From the NCBI GenBank assembly GCA_944363835.1, contig CALVVJ010000001.1, positions 1 through 56,056 on the forward strand: a stretch of 56,056 bases of DNA. The letters are read 5' to 3'. This stretch comes from an uncultured Bacilli bacterium (GTDB taxonomy: Bacteria; Bacillota_I; Bacilli_A; RF39; UBA660). A model generated the notes under the pieces. That model was not told the origin of the DNA and did not search any database. It was given only the letters and a program-made list of their open reading frames with translations. Position numbers and translations under genes: made by a program. Below, in pieces: positions 1 through 12,563 of the stretch (position 1 is the stretch's first letter; each line of letters opens with the position of its first letter).

Positions 1-20
1 GGGGGGGGGGGGGGGGGGGG
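1..20. other. 20-nt poly-G run at the contig edge (probable sequencing or assembly artefact)
   Basis: The window opens with 20 consecutive G in an otherwise very AT-rich sequence. This is typical of no-signal poly-G read ends. It also creates the apparent GTG start of the first ORF. Confidence 0.6.
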
Positions 21-439
21 TGTTGGAGGGGAGTAATATTGTTAATGTTAAACAATTATTGAATGATGAAACAAGAGATTACATTCTTATAATTAAAGAA
101 GCTGGTAAATTTTATCGTGCTTATGATATTGATGCACTCATTATTAATATGTTAATTGGTTATCAAGTTACCATGGGACCAAAAATAGGCTTTCCCGACA
201 ATGCTTTGTCTAAAGTAATAAATAGACTAGAAGAAAATAAAATTTCATATCGTTCTATAGTAAAAGGACAAATTGAAAAAGAATATAATTATAAAAAACT
301 AAATCAATACAATAAATTTGCAAGCATTGCTAGAAAAACTGCAGATTTAAACAATCGACTAGATTTAATTGTAAAGAAAGTTAAAAAAGCAGATGATGAA
401 AAAATATCTGAAATTATTGAATATTTAGAAAATGTTTAA
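20..439 (+). CDS. MutS domain I-like small protein (MSL-type DGR accessory); the 5' end may be truncated by the contig edge
   Basis: The segment DYILIIKEAGKFYRAYDIDALIINMLIGYQVTMGPKIGFPDNALSKVINRLEENKISY follows the MutS mismatch-binding domain I pattern (vlfr.GdFYElfgeDA....L.i.lt....ipmaGvP.h.l..yi.kLv..G.kV). It overlaps the next ORF by 8 nt, which suggests an operon. The start is created by the poly-G artefact. Confidence 0.6.
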   Translation: MLEGSNIVNVKQLLNDETRDYILIIKEAGKFYRAYDIDALIINMLIGYQVTMGPKIGFPDNALSKVINRLEENKISYRSIVKGQIEKEYNYKKLNQYNKFASIARKTADLNNRLDLIVKKVKKADDEKISEIIEYLENV

Positions 440-788
440 AATTGTTGGTAATGATTTTAACATTCTAAATAAATATAAAATATTTATTATAGAATTGGAT
501 AATTTAATCGAAAATATACCTCGTAAAGATTACTTTTATAAAGATAAAATAAGAAAAGTATCAAATTACATTTTAGAATTGATTCTAAAATGTAATTATG
601 AAACTGATAATTCTAATATTAATTATTATGTAACTAATATTAAAGGAAGTATTGCTTATTTAGACTTTTTACTAGATAGGTTATATGATATGAAATATAT
701 TAATGAAAAGAATCTTTATAAAATAACTTTAAAGTTAATTGAAATAAATAAAATGGTAATAGGATGGTTAAATAATAAATGCAAGTGA
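432..788 (+). CDS. avd: Avd (accessory variability determinant), four-helix-bundle protein
   Basis: The protein is 118 aa and its ORF overlaps the RT start by 10 nt. Its pattern IPRKDYFYKDKIRKVSNYILELI ... GSIAYLDFLLDRL..KYINEKN...EINKMVIGWL matches the Avd / 23S-rRNA-IVS four-helix-bundle family layout. Confidence 0.75.
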   Translation: MFKIVGNDFNILNKYKIFIIELDNLIENIPRKDYFYKDKIRKVSNYILELILKCNYETDNSNINYYVTNIKGSIAYLDFLLDRLYDMKYINEKNLYKITLKLIEINKMVIGWLNNKCK

Positions 789-1843
789 ATTTAAGTGATT
801 TAAAACTAGTTTATGAACAAGAAATAAGAAAGAATGTTAAAAATAGAAAAAAGATATTTAAGTTTGAAACTCAAAAACTAGAATATCTTTTAGATATAAA
901 AAGAATATTAGAAAATAATTTATATGATGGTGGAAGATATAATATATTTCTAATATATAAACCAAAACTAAGGGTGGTGATGAGTCAAAGTATTTATGAT
1001 AAAGTAATAAATCATTATGTATCAAGATTTATACTTATACCTAAATTAAGTAAATATTTAAATAATAGAAATTGTGCAACAAGAAAAAATATGGGAATTG
1101 ATTATGCCATAAAATTATTTAAGAAAGATATTGAAAGTTTTAAAAAGTATAAAGAATTTTACTTTTTAAAACTAGATATTTCTAAGTTCTTTTATAGCAT
1201 CGATCATAACGTTTTATTAAATCTTATAAAAGAAGATTTAACAAGTGAAGAATATGATTTAGTTAAAGTAATACTTGATAGTACAAATAAACCATATATA
1301 AATAAAATAATAAGTAATTTTGAAAATAAGTTAGGTATAACTTTACCAAAATATGAATATAATAAAGGCTTACCAATTGGTAACCAATCATCACAATTTC
1401 TAGCCATATTTTACTTAGCAAAATTACAACATTTCATGATACATAATTTACATTTGAAGTTTGTCAATTATATGGACGATTATGTAATCATCCATCAAGA
1501 CAAAGTATATTTAAAGAAATGTTTAGATATTATTACTAGTAAATTATCTAATGAATATAATTTGTTAGTAAATAAAAATAAAACTTATATATCATCATCT
1601 AAAAATGGTATACCATTTTTAGGATATAATTGTAAAGCTATAAATAATAAAACAATAATTAGATTAAAGAGTAATAGTAAGAATAATATTAAAAAAGGTA
1701 TTAAAAGAACTAAGTATTTATTTACTAACAATTTAATAAATTTTGATAAATTATTTAGTAGTATAGAAAACTATAAGCATAGTTATCCATATACTACAGC
1801 TAGTGATGCCTATAATATTTTTAATAGATATTGGGGTGGGTAA
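779..1843 (+). CDS. DGR reverse transcriptase
   Basis: RT motifs are present: FFYSIDH, LPIGNQSSQFLA (the DGR-specific I/LGxxxSQ motif 4, nt 1376-1396), YMDD (nt 1469-1480), NKNKT and IPFLGY. The TR starts 9 nt after the stop codon. Confidence 0.93.
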   Translation: MQVNLSDLKLVYEQEIRKNVKNRKKIFKFETQKLEYLLDIKRILENNLYDGGRYNIFLIYKPKLRVVMSQSIYDKVINHYVSRFILIPKLSKYLNNRNCATRKNMGIDYAIKLFKKDIESFKKYKEFYFLKLDISKFFYSIDHNVLLNLIKEDLTSEEYDLVKVILDSTNKPYINKIISNFENKLGITLPKYEYNKGLPIGNQSSQFLAIFYLAKLQHFMIHNLHLKFVNYMDDYVIIHQDKVYLKKCLDIITSKLSNEYNLLVNKNKTYISSSKNGIPFLGYNCKAINNKTIIRLKSNSKNNIKKGIKRTKYLFTNNLINFDKLFSSIENYKHSYPYTTASDAYNIFNRYWGG

Positions 1844-1851
1844 TTCTTATG

Positions 1852-1946
1852 TAACTCCGAACTCATCGAACTCGAACAATGTGTTCAACGTGAACAACAA
1901 CGGCAACTTGAACAACAACAACGCGAACAACGGCAATTCTGCCCGG
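1852..1946 (+). repeat. DGR template repeat (TR)
   Basis: This 95-bp segment is 81/95 identical to 3323-3417. All 14 differences lie at TR adenines. It is rich in AAC (16 AAY codons in the VR frame) and is locally much more GC-rich than its surroundings. Confidence 0.93.
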
Positions 1947-2047
1947 GAGAGCCCTAAATGTTTGATGTTTAATTGGTTAAGGCTAGTTAAGAATAAGCAT
2001 TAAGGACATGAATTATCCAAGAGTATAACTCTAAATAAGTGATAGAT

Positions 2048-2069
2048 GGAAAAGTCTACGGACTTTTCC
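2048..2069 (+). other. Stable hairpin with a cUACGg tetraloop in the non-coding spacer 3' of TR
   Basis: The arm ggaaaagtc (2048-2056) pairs with gacttttcc (2061-2069), enclosing the loop tacg. The flanks gatag / ctatc can extend the helix. It sits in the 150-nt non-coding segment 1947-2096. Confidence 0.5.
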
Positions 2070-2096
2070 TAGAACTATCACAGATAAAGGAATGCT

Positions 2097-2387
2097 ATGA
2101 ATGAAAGAGTAAACATATTAAGAAAATTATATCCAAATTATCTAATATTAGTAAAACATAAAGATAAAATAAAATTTGTGGGTATTGATAAAATAATTGT
2201 AGATACATTTGGATTAAAGAAACTAAAAAATGTTAATAAATTATTATTAGATAATTTGGATATAAAAATATTAGAAGAATATGACAATAACTTATATGAA
2301 AAACACTACATAAAAATAAAATTATTAAAAATAGTTAATATACTAAAGGAAGGGCTAAAAGATGAAAAAAAGATTAATAATTATTAG
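2097..2387 (+). CDS. Small DGR-embedded protein, weakly similar to the N-terminal part of ORF 20-439 (degenerate MutS-I-like?)
   Basis: The protein is 96 aa and its ORF overlaps the target gene start by 26 nt. By eye, LYPNYLILVKHKDKIKFVGIDKIIVDTFG aligns with RDYILIIKEAGKFYRAYDIDALIINMLIG of the first ORF. The GxFY core is not conserved. Confidence 0.45.
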   Translation: MNERVNILRKLYPNYLILVKHKDKIKFVGIDKIIVDTFGLKKLKNVNKLLLDNLDIKILEEYDNNLYEKHYIKIKLLKIVNILKEGLKDEKKINNY

Positions 2388-3501
2388 TATTGTAATAGTT
2401 GTAATATTTATTAGTATTATAGTCATGGGCTATAATACTAATAGTAATAAAACTTTTACTCAAGATGGAGTAACTTATGCATTAACGCTTGATGGAGCAA
2501 GTACTAATTCGTTTCCATCTAAAGGAATGTACCGAGCAGATGTTACTTGTGAAGGTGCTACAGGAACATGGCTTTATGATGAGTGGCAACTGGCTATTGA
2601 AGATATTACAAGTGATAATATAACTTGTGATATTGATTTTACAACTATTTCTCAAACTAACCTCAATAGTTATATTATGAATCTTAGTGGTAGTGAGCAA
2701 GGCACAGGACAAGTGGTTAATGAAAATGGATATCGCTATGAAGGCAAGAATCCAAATAATTATGTATGGTTCAATAATGAATTGTGGAGAATCATCGGGG
2801 TATTTGATGAAAACTCACATGGACAATCTGGCCAAAATCTAGTAAAGATAATTAGAAATGATTCCATAGGTGGATTAGCTTGGCACAAGTCAAATACGAA
2901 TGATTGGACAGTATCAAGTTTAATGAATTTGTTAAATGGAGCATATTTGAATAGTGAAAACGGTACTGGTGGAGAATATTGTTATGGATATTCAACAACA
3001 GTTCCTGCAGGAAATTGTGATTATACAGAATCTGGAATAAATGATACATATAGACCAATGATAGAAAATGTAACTTGGTATTTGGGAGGATATTCAAGTA
3101 CAAGTGCAACGGCAGAAGCATTCTATGGGTATGAAAGAGGAGATACAGTATATAGTGGAAGACCAACAAGTACTACAGGGTATATAGGCCTTATGTATCC
3201 AAGTGATTATGGATATAGTGTACTAGCTAGTTCATGTGCAAGAACAACAAATTTAGGTTCATATAGTAATTCAACATGTGCAGGACAAAGCTGGATGTAT
3301 GGGCAAGGCTATGAATGGACAATTACTCCGTACTCGTCGCGCTCGAACGGTGTGTTCATCGTGAACTACTACGGCAACTTGAACAGCAACAACGCGTTCA
3401 GCGGCAATTCTGCCCGGCCTGTCTTGTATCTAGACTCTTCTGTCTATGTAATTGACGGAAATGGATCTCAAAGTGATCCATACATAATAGGAATGGGATA
3501 A
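2362..3501 (+). CDS. DGR target (variable) protein, N-terminally membrane-anchored extracellular protein
   Basis: It has an N-terminal signal anchor (MKKRLIIISIVIVVIFISIIVMGY). The VR (3323-3417) encodes TPYSSRSNGVFIVNYYGNLNSNNAFSGNSAR near the C-terminus. The tail is ARPVLYLD...GNGSQSDPYIIGMG. Confidence 0.9.
   Translation: MKKRLIIISIVIVVIFISIIVMGYNTNSNKTFTQDGVTYALTLDGASTNSFPSKGMYRADVTCEGATGTWLYDEWQLAIEDITSDNITCDIDFTTISQTNLNSYIMNLSGSEQGTGQVVNENGYRYEGKNPNNYVWFNNELWRIIGVFDENSHGQSGQNLVKIIRNDSIGGLAWHKSNTNDWTVSSLMNLLNGAYLNSENGTGGEYCYGYSTTVPAGNCDYTESGINDTYRPMIENVTWYLGGYSSTSATAEAFYGYERGDTVYSGRPTSTTGYIGLMYPSDYGYSVLASSCARTTNLGSYSNSTCAGQSWMYGQGYEWTITPYSSRSNGVFIVNYYGNLNSNNAFSGNSARPVLYLDSSVYVIDGNGSQSDPYIIGMG
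3323..3417 (+). repeat. DGR variable repeat (VR)
   Basis: This is the counterpart of TR 1852-1946, at an offset of 1471 nt. Nine TR AAY codons are recoded here (Y, R, G, I, Y, Y, S, F, S). The 3' end cggcaattctgcccgg is identical in both copies, like an IMH (initiation of mutagenic homing) sequence. Confidence 0.93.
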
Positions 3502-3509
3502 CCTTTAAT

Positions 3510-3540
3510 CCTCCGCCGGCGGCTGTCCCCGCCACGGAGG
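3510..3540 (+). promoter_or_regulatory. GC-rich hairpin immediately after the DGR target gene (candidate target-recognition cruciform and/or terminator)
   Basis: The sequence is cctccg-cc-ggcgg-ctgtcc-ccgcc-a-cggagg, giving 6+5 bp of G:C-rich stem in a ~30% GC genome. It starts 9 nt after the stop codon and has no T-run after it. Confidence 0.6.
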
Positions 3541-3599
3541 CCGAGTTATCAACAAACTCTTGCGATATCATAGTAATTATGATACCATAAGTTTGGTGA

Positions 3600-6500
3600 T
3601 TGACTATGGCTAAATATATGAGTATAACAGATATAATTAATAATACAAATATAAGTAAGTATTTTACTATTCAAGAACTTTACCAAGCATCTTCTATTTT
3701 ACCAAGGTGTGAAATAGAACTGCTTGATAAAGAAGAAACTTTTGATAGTAAAATATTTTCTTTTTTTATGGAAGTTCACAATTACTATTACGAACATTGT
3801 GGAGTAGAAATAGAAATTAAAGATAATGATATAATTAATATATCTTGTACATGTCATAATTTTGAACATCATGATAAATGTATTCATGTTGCTGTAGTTA
3901 TTCTTGCTTGTTACAAAATCTTATTTCCGATTTTTTCTGATCCTAAAAGAATATCTAATGCTATATTAGAACAATTTTTAGTAAATAGTAAACCTACAAT
4001 AAAGAAGGAAGTAGATTTAGAATTAAAACTAGATATTAATAGCAGTTATTATCATGAATTTTTAGAACCTAAAGTTAATATCGGCGAAAATAGATTATAT
4101 AGCCTAAATAATAAAGTAAGTGCATTTAAGAGTGTTTATGAAGATGGAGTAGGTGAAGTAAAGTTTGGAAAAAACTTTACTTTTAATCCGGAACTTAATT
4201 ATTTTAATGAAGAAAATAGAAAAGTTATTGATGCATTCTTAGAATATACCGGAGGAGTAAATGGAAGATATCATTCTCCTCAAGAATTAAAAAGATTCTT
4301 AAGTAAAATTAAAGATATAAGATTTATCTATAATGATTATTTAGTTAGTGGAATAAAGAAAGGATTTCCTCTAAAAACTAAATTAAGTAAAAATAGTGAT
4401 AATTATAATCTAAATTTTGATACTAATGAATTTAATTTATTAATTGATAATGATTATGAATATGTCTTTTATAAAGGAAGTATATATCACTTAAATAAAA
4501 AAGAAAGAGAATTATTAGAAACAATAATTGATAATGAACTAAATAATATTACTATCGAAAAAGATAAAGTAAATGTATTTACTAAAGGCTTAATGAATAT
4601 TGTTAAAAACAATATGGATGTTGATGCATCAGTTGATGATATAGTTGTAACTAAAGATATAGTATGTGAATTATACTTTGATTTAAGAAGAGATTATATA
4701 ATATGTGATGTTATATTTATCTATGATAAAGAAGTAGTTAATTACTTTGATGCAAATTCTCTAGTCCTAAGGGACATGGAATTTGAATCAAGGGTTATTA
4801 ATGACTTACTTATGTATTCTTTTGAAATAAAGAACAATAAATTAATACTTGTTGATTTAGAAAAAGAAGTAAAGTTTATTGAAGATGGTTTAGAAGAATT
4901 ATCAAGTAAGTATGTAGTATATACTACAGAAAAATTTAAGAAGATGAATATACGTAAGAAAACTAATATTACATCGATGTTTGGTATAGGTAAGGATAAC
5001 ATATTAAGTTTTAATTTTTCTCTTGGAGATATACCTAGTGATGAATTAGTAAATGTATTTAAAAGTATTAAAAATAAGAAAAGATATTATAAATTAAAAA
5101 GTGGTGATATTCTAAATCTAGAAGATGAATCATTGCAAGAACTAGAAAATCTAACAGAAGAATTAGAGTTAACTGATGAAGATATCATAAATGGTCATGG
5201 AAGTATACTTAAATACCGGGCAATATATTTAGATAGTCTAAAAAATACTAAGTATAGTAATATAATTAAAACTGATAATTTATTTGATAATTTAATTAAA
5301 AACTTTTATGCCTTCAAAGATAGTGAACTTACTTTGAAGGACTTAAGTCAGTTAAGAGATTATCAAGTAACTGGTGTTAAATGGTTGTATAATTTGGATA
5401 AAACAGGCTTCGGAGGTATTCTTGCTGATGAAATGGGACTAGGTAAGACTATTCAAATAATTTATTATATTAAAGAGATGTTATTAGAAAATAAAGATTA
5501 TAAATTCTTAATAGTTGTACCAACTAGCCTCGCTTATAACTGGGAACATGAGTTTGATGAATTTGCACCGGAAATTAAAAAGACAATTTGTGTCGGTAAT
5601 AAAGAAAGAAGAATTAAGATATTAAATGATTTAGATAATGTGAGTGTCTTAATTACTACTTATGGTATTTTAAGAGAAGATGAATTATTATATGAAGATA
5701 AAAATTTCCATGCTGTAATTATTGATGAAGCTCAAAACATTAAAAATAATATGGCAGGTATTACTAAAGTTGTCAAAAATATCAAAGGAGATGTTAAGTT
5801 TGCTCTAACTGGTACACCACTAGAAAATTCAATATTAGAGTTATGGAGTATCTTTGATTTTGTTATGCCTGGTTATTTAACTAGCCTAACTAAATTTCAA
5901 AGTAAATATAAAATAAAAGATTTTAATGAGGATAGTGAAACTTTACTTAAAGGATTATCTCATCAAATAAATCCATTTATCTTAAGAAGAAGAAAAAAAG
6001 ATGTTATTAAAGAATTACCTGATAAATTAATAAATGATATTTATATTGATTTATCCGATGAACAAAAAAAGTTATATGCGGCGGAGCTTGAACGAGTAAA
6101 GAAAGAAATGGATGAAATAATAGAAAGTGGAGGAATGTCTAAAGCAAGATTCTTAATTTTACAATTACTTGTAAAATTAAGACAGATTTGTATTGATCCA
6201 AGTATTATTTATGATAATTATGATGGGGGAAGTAATAAAATAGATACATTAATTAATATTATTAATGAATATAGTGCTAATGGTCATAAAATGTTAATAT
6301 TCTCATCATTTAGAACTGCTCTTAATTTAGTTAAAGAAAGACTAGATAAAGAAAAAATTAAATATTATATGATTGATGGCGGAGTAAGTTCAAAAAGTAG
6401 AATTAACATGGTAGATGATTTTAATTTAAGAAAGGATACCAAAGTATTTTTAATAACCCTTAAGGCTGGTGGTACAGGACTTAATCTTGCTTCTGCTGAT

Positions 6501-6767
6501 GTTGTGATTCACCTAGACTTATGGTGGAATCCCCAAGCGGAAAATCAAGCAACTGATAGAGCCCATAGAATAGGACAAAAAAATATAGTGGAAGTAATAC
6601 ATTTAATTTCTAAAGGTACTATAGAAGAAAAAATATTGGAACTGCAAAATAAGAAAAGAATGCTTAGTGATAAATTAATTGATGGGGAAGTTCGAGATAA
6701 GAATTTATTATCTGAATTAACTGAAGAAGATATTAGAAATTTACTTGCTTATGAAAATAAAGAATAA
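3600..6767 (+). CDS. SNF2-family helicase with an N-terminal SWIM zinc finger (YwqA-like)
   Basis: It has a SWIM CxCx(n)CxH motif (ISCTCHNFEHHDKCIH). SNF2 motifs are present: LADEMGLGKT, DEAQNIKN, LTGTPLEN. Helicase C motifs are present: TLKAGGTGLNL, WWNPQAENQATDRAHRIGQ. The start is ambiguous (TTG 3600, ATG 3606 or ATG 3618). Confidence 0.9.
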   Translation: MTMAKYMSITDIINNTNISKYFTIQELYQASSILPRCEIELLDKEETFDSKIFSFFMEVHNYYYEHCGVEIEIKDNDIINISCTCHNFEHHDKCIHVAVVILACYKILFPIFSDPKRISNAILEQFLVNSKPTIKKEVDLELKLDINSSYYHEFLEPKVNIGENRLYSLNNKVSAFKSVYEDGVGEVKFGKNFTFNPELNYFNEENRKVIDAFLEYTGGVNGRYHSPQELKRFLSKIKDIRFIYNDYLVSGIKKGFPLKTKLSKNSDNYNLNFDTNEFNLLIDNDYEYVFYKGSIYHLNKKERELLETIIDNELNNITIEKDKVNVFTKGLMNIVKNNMDVDASVDDIVVTKDIVCELYFDLRRDYIICDVIFIYDKEVVNYFDANSLVLRDMEFESRVINDLLMYSFEIKNNKLILVDLEKEVKFIEDGLEELSSKYVVYTTEKFKKMNIRKKTNITSMFGIGKDNILSFNFSLGDIPSDELVNVFKSIKNKKRYYKLKSGDILNLEDESLQELENLTEELELTDEDIINGHGSILKYRAIYLDSLKNTKYSNIIKTDNLFDNLIKNFYAFKDSELTLKDLSQLRDYQVTGVKWLYNLDKTGFGGILADEMGLGKTIQIIYYIKEMLLENKDYKFLIVVPTSLAYNWEHEFDEFAPEIKKTICVGNKERRIKILNDLDNVSVLITTYGILREDELLYEDKNFHAVIIDEAQNIKNNMAGITKVVKNIKGDVKFALTGTPLENSILELWSIFDFVMPGYLTSLTKFQSKYKIKDFNEDSETLLKGLSHQINPFILRRRKKDVIKELPDKLINDIYIDLSDEQKKLYAAELERVKKEMDEIIESGGMSKARFLILQLLVKLRQICIDPSIIYDNYDGGSNKIDTLINIINEYSANGHKMLIFSSFRTALNLVKERLDKEKIKYYMIDGGVSSKSRINMVDDFNLRKDTKVFLITLKAGGTGLNLASADVVIHLDLWWNPQAENQATDRAHRIGQKNIVEVIHLISKGTIEEKILELQNKKRMLSDKLIDGEVRDKNLLSELTEEDIRNLLAYENKE

Positions 6768-11309: not shown

Positions 11310-12563
11310 ATGAAAGAGATAAATAATGATAAAGAAAACAATAATGAAGTAAAAGAAATTAGTTTTGCCAAATACATAATTAATTTAAGATTAAAAAGAA
11401 ATTTAACTCAAAAAGCTCTAGCAGAAAAGATTCAAGTATCTGATAGAACCATATCTAAATGGGAGAATGGTCTAACCGTTCCAGATTTAATTAATATCAG
11501 AAACATCTGTAAAGAACTAGGTGTATCTGCTAATTCTGTAGTTTTAGAAAAAAGAACATTACTAGACCGTTTTAAAGATTTCTTACGTTTATTAAAAATC
11601 TTTTGGAAACACTTATACAATAATATATTTAAATTAATATTTGCCATTCTATTTATTCTTTTAATAATCTATTTTATAAATAATTATAATTCCGTAAGTG
11701 TATATTTATTAAACTATGATAGTAGCAGTATTACTATAGATAAAGGCTATTTTATCAAAACTAAAATAGATACAATATTAATGATAGATAACATAGAACT
11801 AAATAAGGATTATGATTCAGAAATTGATACTTTAGAACTTGAACTTTACATTTTAATGAATGGTGATAAAGTTACTATTTATAAAGATAACGAACTAGGA
11901 GATATATTTATCGAAGAATTGACTAGATACCCAGAAACATTCACAAGTGATATAACTAGAGAAATGACTAAAGGGTTATACTTAACAATAACTATCAATA
12001 ATGAAGAAACTTATGATTGTAAAATAAGTTTTAGAAAGAATTTTAGTAATAATAAATTAGTATATTCTAAATCTTACATAGAAACAGATTACAATAGTGA
12101 TTATAAAATTTTTCTTGGTCATGAAGAAAATATCATATTGGATAAATATTATAATAATTTAAATCCTAGTAATGTAACCTCATTTGATGATGTAATAACT
12201 GATACAGCATCGTATTCAGTAACAAATGATGATAACAAATTGAAAGACTTAGGTTATTCTTATGATAAAGATTCGGATACCTATACCAAAATTGAGAATG
12301 ACAAAACAATAACTTATCAACCAAAGTTTGATTTATTGATAAGTAAAGAAAATAAAAATAATTTGGATTATAGTTTGTACTATTATATAGAAAAAGATAG
12401 AATAAATTATGAAGGCTACGATAATAAGAAAACAATAAATATAAGATTTAAATATTTTGTTAATGAAAATAATCTAGAATGTATAGTTGGAAATTGTCAA
12501 AATTATCAAAAAGAAATAGATTATATTTTGGCTGAATATCAAGCAATTTCCCAAACTCTCTAA
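11310..12563 (+). CDS. XRE-family helix-turn-helix regulator with a transmembrane segment and a large C-terminal domain
   Basis: It has an HTH_3 signature (LTQKALAEKIQVSDRTISKWENGLTVPDL) followed by a hydrophobic helix (IFKLIFAILFILLIIYFI). Confidence 0.8.
   Translation: MKEINNDKENNNEVKEISFAKYIINLRLKRNLTQKALAEKIQVSDRTISKWENGLTVPDLINIRNICKELGVSANSVVLEKRTLLDRFKDFLRLLKIFWKHLYNNIFKLIFAILFILLIIYFINNYNSVSVYLLNYDSSSITIDKGYFIKTKIDTILMIDNIELNKDYDSEIDTLELELYILMNGDKVTIYKDNELGDIFIEELTRYPETFTSDITREMTKGLYLTITINNEETYDCKISFRKNFSNNKLVYSKSYIETDYNSDYKIFLGHEENIILDKYYNNLNPSNVTSFDDVITDTASYSVTNDDNKLKDLGYSYDKDSDTYTKIENDKTITYQPKFDLLISKENKNNLDYSLYYYIEKDRINYEGYDNKKTINIRFKYFVNENNLECIVGNCQNYQKEIDYILAEYQAISQTL

Follow-up and report, generated by a model that had tools for sequence, protein, structure and literature searches.

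Evidence for a chromosomal diversity-generating retroelement of the MutS-like class in uncultured chicken-gut Bacilli

Organization of the cassette

The DNA considered here, referred to as the window, is a stretch of 56,056 nt from an uncultured Bacilli bacterium (contig CALVVJ010000001.1), and its positions 1-3554 very probably, at roughly 93%, represent most of a chromosomal diversity-generating retroelement (DGR) of the class that carries a MutS-like (MSL) accessory gene, in an uncultured, spore-forming chicken-gut member of the Bacilli, Candidatus Onthocola or a close relative. All features described lie on the forward strand, where a 5′-truncated MSL gene (20-439) is followed by an Avd-like accessory gene (432-788), a reverse transcriptase (RT) gene (779-1843), the template repeat (TR; 1852-1946), a small open reading frame (sORF; 2097-2387) and the target gene T2 (2362-3501), which holds the variable repeat (VR; 3323-3417). 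The same cassette occurs in about 20 related species-level "uncultured Bacilli" metagenome-assembled genomes (MAGs), and mapping of the window proteins onto 25 loci (numbered below with the prefix L) gave a common layout of T1, MSL, Avd, RT, TR, sORF and T2. The two targets measure 455-565 aa (T1) and about 378 aa (T2); both have a VR at their end, and over the 320 C-terminal residues their sequences are about 75% identical.

The RT (354 aa) matches RVT_1 (E=4e-16) and carries the motifs IGNQSSQ at residue 200 and YMDD at residue 231, both of which had been pointed out in a first-pass annotation of this DNA. Its top match in the PDB (E=6e-14) is 8ub7, a 328-aa chain that its entry names simply "Reverse transcriptase" and that we take to be the bRT of the Bordetella phage, and the matches to other RTs of solved structure are weaker (1e-5 for a group II intron RT and 1e-3 for a retron RT); the motifs and the best solved-structure match assign the enzyme to the DGR type. 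Its relatives number in the hundreds in metagenome assemblies, and one from a Candidatus Onthocola stercorigallinarum MAG (Bacilli) is 99% identical; a search by exact sequence found neither the RT nor T2 of the window among called genes. The Avd-like gene (118 aa, pI 9.1) overlaps both MSL and RT, as the first reading had it for the RT side, and keeps its place between them in all loci; its best matches are DivGenRetAVD in NCBIfam (E=9e-10) and bAvd in Pfam (E=6e-6), each under the curated cut-off.

The most upstream gene had been described as an unnamed accessory ORF at 20-439, and its presence is upheld but its anonymity is not. The product matches Pfam MutS_I (E=2.5e-4) above the gathering score, as 12 of the 15 MSL family members match that family (best E=2.7e-7); the top PDB match of the family profile, a weak one, is domain I of MSH6 (E=0.12), and the Pfam scan found no HRDC match. 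MSL genes were recorded in 16 of 372 DGRs, in each case in the company of avd, as "Architecture D" (Wu et al. 2018, NAR 46:11, PMC5758913), and that survey delimits the family by a length of 112-283 aa, MutS homology, residence in a DGR with avd and absence of HRDC. With a full-length product of 158-159 aa and these same attributes, the accessory ORF is, as far as its sequence tells, the MSL gene already described.

The coordinates first assigned to this gene need revision, as no real start exists at 20; the reading frame is open back to base 2, into the poly-G at the contig end, and in the closest relative the gene begins about 65 nt further upstream. The first 33 bases of the window read G20-TGTT-GGAGGGGAG and place the contig end within a natural poly-G tract of MSL. 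Locus L026, whose RT is 96% identical to that of the window and which is nucleotide-identical to it from about position 34 onward, has T1, the T1 hairpin, a ribosome-binding site (RBS), an MSL leader ORF (MKIGNIKIEK...) and, at the place matching this string, a clean G10 tract; since L026 has this clean tract, the contig break falls inside a natural homopolymer and about the first 33 bases of the window are unreliable. The string G20-TGTT-GGAGGGGAG looks like a degraded read-through of the G tract, and the G20 length together with the next 13 bases is probably erroneous. A pure artefact of two-colour chemistry was rejected as the whole story, given that relatives have a real G tract at the same site. 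The window MSL thus comes without its leader of about 21 codons and without the RBS, and the locus, initially taken for a complete DGR, is incomplete, because the contig ends inside MSL and relatives carry a second, paralogous target upstream.

The repeat pair and the adenine pattern

Ungapped re-alignment of the TR (95 nt; A35 C28 G17 T15) with the VR (T2 codons 321-352 of 379) bears out the 81 identities in 95 positions reported at first, with the 14 mismatches at exactly the sites then listed (1853, 1860, 1865, 1869, 1870, 1878, 1879, 1888, 1896, 1899, 1915, 1926, 1927 and 1930). All 14 fall on TR adenines and none on the 60 non-A positions; the hypergeometric probability that 14 random mismatches would all land on the 35 adenines is 1.1e-7. 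The TR opens at the ninth base after the RT stop codon (1841-1843), in agreement with the spacing initially given, and codon reading likewise confirmed that the TR, in the VR frame, contains 16 AAY codons (Y being C or T), nine of which the VR recodes, the replacements being Y, R, G, I, Y, Y, S, F and S. Of the 35 TR adenines, 33 occupy the first or second place of a codon. The homology between the repeats ends abruptly at both flanks, and their 3′ ends share the same GC-rich GGCAATTCTGCCCGG before total divergence. The GC content is 47% in the TR and 55% in the VR, against 29% in the window as a whole, and an adenine-masked scan of both strands found no further VR in the 56 kb.

The same pattern extends to the family, where the VR departs from the TR at 424 of the 898 template adenines and at 59 of the 1,500 other positions, a count made with an adenine-neutral matrix and therefore somewhat favourable to A-only alignments. 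More telling is that VRs track their own TR: species-specific changes at non-A positions of the TR are mirrored in the VRs of the same locus, with non-A mismatches at 0 of 60 positions in L016, 0 of 59 in L021 and 0 of 64 in L008. At the single non-A site where the TRs of the window and L026 differ (1886, C or T), the VR of each strain has the base of its own TR. Because a TR polymorphism of 97%-identical strains has thus been copied into their VRs, the transfer from TR to VR is recent.

Variation among close homologues points in the same direction. For T2, which has at least 7,784 homologues, the 38 closest (about 90% identity or more; assembled contigs, not reads) show residue differences of 83% at the 16 AAY sites, the corresponding figures being 4.8% for all other sites and 2% for the non-AAY sites of the VR; one of them, P0122, differs at 13 of the 16 AAY sites and at 3 of the 363 others. 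The polymorphism at adenine-templated VR positions that the first-pass annotation had proposed to look for is therefore present in these assembled contigs. In favour of an ordinary diverged duplication, with the adenine pattern due to coincidence or to composition, it may be said that in a TR as A-rich as this one (35/95) some excess of mismatches at A is expected. Nevertheless, a probability of 1e-7 for 14 of 14 mismatches at A, the repetition of the pattern in more than 20 independent TR/VR pairs and the restriction of population variation to AAY codons leave that explanation with next to no probability, and the family-wide data are judged to refute it.

The T1 and T2 VRs are identical over the TR-aligned stretch in L009 (4914-4968 vs 12048-12102) and in L014 (1533-1618 vs 5170-5255), which could be the result of assembly collapse, of gene conversion, or of one cDNA having gone to both. 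L009 also contains about 3.7 kb of extra DNA between RT and sORF. The TR of L005 (1459-1554), on a 3.5-kb contig of the nearest MAG that bears a name, Candidatus Onthocola stercorigallinarum, has eight non-A mismatches and a 1-nt indel relative to its VR, and differs from the window TR mostly at adenines, as if the assembly had mixed TR and VR reads.

Conserved RNA around the template repeat

The TR is followed by a structured RNA of about 145 nt (1947-2090), conserved among the loci, with the spacer ("Sp") of the Bordetella phage DGR as its analogue. RNAalifold yielded 34 pairs, and in 14 of these both partners have changed in a compensatory manner; 96.6% of the cells are paired, as compared with 37-57% when the partners are slid, and the 14 covarying pairs compare with 3-5 in the slid controls. 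None of 500 shuffles attained the observed values of pairing or covariation. The RNA comprises a 5′ domain (1953-2005), the 3′ strand of a duplex that brackets the TR (2007-2018), a stem-loop (2020-2032) followed by an A-rich run (2033-2039), and a long hairpin (2040-2080) whose inner part (2048-2069) forms a 9-bp stem capped by a UACG tetraloop. A search of Rfam returned two tRNAs only, both distant from the cassette.

The 5′ strand of the bracketing duplex, UGGGUAAUUC..AUG (1837-1851), overlaps the RT stop codon, and RNA duplex prediction pairs 1837-1846 with 2009-2018 at -12.6 to -16.6 kcal/mol in 13 of 13 loci. Compensatory changes replace A-U by G-C in L013, L014 and L016, and C-G by U-A in L016. 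A "cPRT Stop" duplex element was described by Handa et al. (bioRxiv 10.1101/2023.10.23.563531), and the bracketing duplex, with the stem-loop at 2020-2032 and the A-rich run, appears to match that description; the same authors detected, in 207 of 278 Avd-type DGRs, a stem-loop that binds Avd and lies just 3′ of the TR, a class that the 9-bp stem with its UACG tetraloop matches.

Targets, small ORF and post-target palindrome

The target T2 (379 aa, pI 4.4, N-terminus MKKRLIIISIVIVVIFISIIVMG) is acidic and begins with a signal-anchor-like segment. Its VR region gives a sub-threshold match to the C-terminal end of DUF6273 (E=0.019), a family matched by 4 of the 18 members of the T1/T2 family (best E=7e-4) and modelled as C-type-lectin-like in DGR targets (PMC10743442). 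The T1/T2 profile gave chance-level matches only against PDB sequences, and the AlphaFold model of T2 reached a predicted local distance difference test (pLDDT) score of 31. Both this model and that of the sORF (pLDDT 50) are too poor to be used, because the alignments held close relatives only.

The sORF (96 aa, pI 9.6) overlaps the T2 start and is kept across loci: it is free of stops and in the same place in every locus holding the region, with the fewest changes at codon position 2. An exhaustive profile search of 1.84 billion proteins gave a family of 64 representative clusters only, nearly all of 85-100 aa, and the sORF is a candidate for an extra accessory gene. The idea of an obvious MSL duplicate was at first rejected, as BLASTP found nothing and hhalign with a shallow profile gave a probability of 0.2%; a deeper profile raised this to 61% (E=8e-5), two of 51 members weakly match MutS_I, and the matter stands as a weak lead according to which the sORF may be a shortened MSL paralogue. 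The sORF homologue of the more distant locus L020 (RT 46% identical) lies downstream of T1 and before MSL, not between TR and T2, and T1 of that locus (3182-4993) opens with the prepilin-type motif GFTLVELL.

A composite palindrome of about 55 nt (3497-3554) extends over the T2 stop codon. As folded at the DNA level, it has AT-rich outer arms (GATAAC at 3497-3502 and GTTATC at 3545-3550) around a GC-rich inner hairpin (3510-3540) made of 6-bp and 5-bp stems and the 6-nt loop CTGTCC, with a predicted energy of -13.9 kcal/mol (z=-4.4), and the onset of the hairpin is 92 nt past the end of the TR/VR homology. Hairpins are found 3′ of the T1 and T2 stop codons in nearly all loci, where the stem sequences vary and the pairing is kept. 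Promoter and terminator scans remained at chance level. Immediately 3′ of the GC hairpin lies the motif TTATCAACA (3546-3554); 17 of the 33 targets have its general form, TTATC(C/A)ACA, 44-54 nt past their stop codon, and the window contains it once only. A DnaA box was considered for this strongly positional motif and set aside, since it reads more naturally as the 3′ arm of an inverted repeat whose other arm is the terminal ATG-TGA-TAA of the target genes; the motif is probably the outer arm of the composite palindrome and not a DnaA site.

Genomic context

Downstream of the cassette, the window contains genes for an SNF2 helicase, SpoIVA, rpoB/rpoC, lysS and arginine deiminase, and because of these neighbours the locus is assigned to the chromosome of a sporulating member of the Bacillota. 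This corroborates the initial placement in a spore-forming, low-GC Bacillota chromosome, as do the 29% GC and the 99% identity of the RT to that of a Bacilli MAG. The statement that no phage genes are nearby is true of the 3′ side of the window and of both sides in the relatives, whose flanks contain TruB, YhcG-like, HTH and tRNA methyltransferase genes. The position of the target downstream of the TR had been presented as a departure; this falls away, because the family has targets on both sides and because an avd-RT-TR core with variable target positions is already catalogued (PMC5758913).

A residence in a prophage or other mobile element, with the variable proteins acting as phage receptor-binding proteins, would be in keeping with the many DGRs that are phage-borne, with the DUF6273-type targets known in gut phages and with the missing 5′ flank of the window. 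It is nonetheless highly improbable in view of the window neighbours (SNF2 helicase, SpoIVA, rpoB/rpoC), of the 5′ flank of relatives (TruB, YhcG-like and HTH genes or tRNA methyltransferase), of a best phage RT match of just 34% identity, and of the signal-anchor N-termini of the targets; the recurrence of the SNF2 neighbour across species also fits vertical inheritance. T2 lies on a strand with positive GC skew, as does rpoBC, so that its direction is probably that of replication; DGR editing is favoured in this orientation (PMC12875486).

The SNF2-family helicase (3600-6767, 1,055 aa) comes directly after the DGR and carries a SWIM zinc finger at its N-terminus along with a bacterial SNF2-associated domain. 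It adjoins T2 in L001, L006, L011 and L015 and, more weakly, in L009 and L025. The subclade formed by L002, L003, L004 and L027 is without this neighbour; a few genes past T2, at about 10.2-13 kb of the locus coordinates, it has a gene for a ToxN-family toxin and one for a 707-aa protein of unknown family.

The poly-G tract of MSL

In 10 related loci, some with an RT only 47-48% identical, a run of 7-12 G marks the 5′ edge of the MutS-I domain; the sites include L026 5183-5260, L006 3432, L007 423, L008 5244, L009 5236, L015 1732, L019 122 and L021 1244. Such tracts are rare in these genomes, with 12 G/C runs of at least 7 nt in 289 kb of the AT-rich relatives, 11 of which are at the MSL site. 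The assembled tract lengths place the leader ORF out of the domain frame in L006, L007, L008 and L026. When the predicted in-frame proteins were looked up by exact sequence, alleles from G6 to G11 were recovered, with identical flanking protein sequence and from near-identical strains. Two of them are in frame with the leader ATG, G8 (P0427, 158 aa, 1 contig) and G11 (P0426, 159 aa, 4 contigs), and four are out of frame with it, namely G9 (P0428, 147 aa, 20 contigs), G10 (P0425, 141 aa, 12 contigs), G7 (P0435, 140 aa, 3 contigs) and G6 (P0437, 146 aa, 2 contigs).

As read from these alleles, the MSL tract shows the pattern of slipped-strand contingency, being length-variable and frame-shifting. 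Start codons of MSL are present in all three frames, and the effect of tract length may for that reason be graded and not on/off; a good RBS exists at the leader ATG only. It is conceivable, although less likely than not, that the tract is a contingency switch for MSL expression from the strong start which gates hypermutation, so that surface proteins diversify in bursts within a subpopulation, and that the sORF supplies a second, shortened MSL-like factor. The variation in tract length may also be an Illumina homopolymer sequencing artefact. Programmed frameshifting at the tract was regarded as unlikely, since the direction of the shift would have to vary among strains, L026 requiring +1 or -2 G and L006, L007 and L008 requiring -1. 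No paper connecting DGRs to phase variation through homopolymers came up in the literature search.

A further G run was observed in L020 (3133-3195), where G9 lies about 40 nt upstream of the pilin-like T1 start, likely as a promoter spacer; it hints that the same switch logic has been used more than once.

Activity and proposed mechanism

The window and its relatives display the parts of a DGR, an adenine-specific rewriting of the VR directed by the TR, and conserved RNA and DNA structures. The mutagenic retrohoming originally proposed finds support in the RT type, the Avd gene, the A-only mismatches, the flanking RNA, the post-target hairpin and the variation at A-templated codons. In the mechanism suggested by these elements, MSL, Avd, RT, and TR with its flanking RNA would be co-transcribed, as their overlapping same-strand arrangement indicates. 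By analogy with the Bordetella phage DGR, the TR-flanking RNA would recruit the RT-Avd complex and prime cDNA synthesis, and the RT would then copy the 95-nt TR faithfully save at adenines. The cDNA would replace the VR at the 3′ end of T2, and of the off-contig paralogue T1, by a pathway that we infer, and this would recode as many as 16 AAY codons of a protein exposed at the surface. That VRs are rewritten is shown by the restriction of mismatches to adenines, the agreement of VRs with their own TR, and the population variation. The GC-rich palindrome at the target stop codon probably marks the target in the manner of the phage hairpin/cruciform. MSL, and possibly the sORF, may act as accessory factors; binding of MSL to a mismatched cDNA:target heteroduplex is a speculation, and the length of the poly-G might gate the amount of MSL.

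One subclade of the relatives appears to be in decay. The TR of L002 and L003 (7074-7128) is without about 30 nt that are still in their own VRs, an insertion of about 290 nt with an inverted repeat interrupts the TR of L004 (7161-7442), and L002 and L004 share in-frame stops in MSL (5256-5655). The RT of L027 and L028 was called at 301 aa only.

A number of observations weigh against the interpretation as a functional DGR of this class. The MSL leader, the operon promoter and T1 are absent from the window; both Avd family matches fall short of curated cut-offs; for the fold of the variable domain of the target, the T2 model is of low pLDDT and the PDB sequences gave chance-level matches only. 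The family-wide mismatch count leans somewhat towards A-only alignments by virtue of its matrix, and the evidence for diversification comes from assembled contigs and not from reads of this sample. The phage consensus (Guo et al. 2011) is a stem of 7-10 bp with a 4-nt GRNA loop, located 4-34 bp from the VR; the window hairpin departs from it in its distance of 92 nt, its interrupted stem and its 6-nt loop, although these details, drawn from phage DGRs, may not be defining for the family. One identical VR is present on separate contigs in 8 of the 16 closest homologues listed, six of them within P0127-P0134, where the contigs come from different assemblies; as several separate contigs share one VR, retrohoming is taken to be episodic and not constant, and infrequent over the time in which strains spread. 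Finally, the decay of the subclade L002-L004 and L027 indicates that not all family members are active.

These last points raise the alternative of a true DGR whose copy in the window is now silent, the A-only differences being a record of past activity. It would be in line with the identical VRs on several contigs, with the deleted or interrupted TR, MSL stops and shortened RT of the related subclade, and with the predominance of assembled MSL alleles out of the leader frame (20 contigs with G9 and 12 with G10, against 5 with G8 and G11). The integrity of the window copy argues for the contrary: the genes for Avd, RT and T2 and the sORF are all intact, the MSL frame stays open up to the contig end, there is no non-A mismatch in 60 positions, and the TR and its flanking RNA agree with those of the relatives. 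The TR polymorphism of 97%-identical strains, present in their VRs, also points to recent transfer. A silent copy is accordingly considered unlikely, although less so than a phage-borne one, and a cassette capable of diversifying its targets remains favoured.

Comparison with known systems

Tens of thousands of DGRs have been catalogued, and chromosomal DGRs are common in gut Bacillota. As a DGR, the present cassette adds little, since the MSL class and the avd-RT-TR order are already described. Its value is that of a clean natural case, in which one two-target cassette recurs in about 20 related species and recent transfer from TR to VR is strongly indicated, a decaying subclade is available for comparison, and a covariation-supported RNA model for a Bacillota DGR is in line with the cryo-EM picture of the Bordetella phage. 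The hypervariable MSL tract is the one lead worth following up; a phase-variable MSL, if true, would offer a testable handle on the function of MSL and on how cells restrain a DGR.

The closest known arrangement is that of the MSL DGRs of "Architecture D", including the Legionella DGR, with which the cassette shares (Wu et al. 2018, PMC5758913) a small MutS-domain-I-like gene adjoining avd, the lack of HRDC, a chromosomal and not phage-associated location and a VR near the 3′ end of the target. It differs from that description in the two flanking paralogous targets, the 96-aa ORF and the poly-G of MSL, the comparison covering features other than gene order.

Similarities with the Bordetella phage BPP-1 DGR (mtd-avd-TR-brt) include the RT type, as judged by motifs and by the top match of solved structure, Avd, an AAY-rich TR with A-only changes, a TR-3′ RNA with a 9-bp UNCG-capped stem-loop, a duplex bracketing the TR and a GC-rich inverted repeat after the target. 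The order differs, however, being avd-RT-TR in the window and avd-TR-RT in BPP-1, and the window cassette is chromosomal and accompanied by MSL and sORF. Its hairpin is also distinct, lying 92 nt from the end of the homology and over the stop codon, with a 6-nt loop and AT-rich outer arms, and no initiation of mutagenic homing (IMH) element of the (GC)14 type was recognised in the window.

The gut phages nd4 and nd12 (PMC10743442) also have two targets per TR, and their targets resemble the VR region here through the weak, sub-threshold likeness to the C-terminal end of DUF6273; nd12 is the source of the best phage RT match, at 34% identity. In the present family, by contrast, both VRs are C-terminal and the targets appear to be cellular, membrane-anchored paralogues. 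With the poly-G contingency loci of Campylobacter and Neisseria, the MSL gene shares a G tract of 7-12 nt early in the ORF that is length-polymorphic, frame-shifting and nearly unique in an AT-rich genome, whereas the affected gene is here the accessory gene of a retroelement and not that of a surface structure, and the variation is known from assembled alleles alone.

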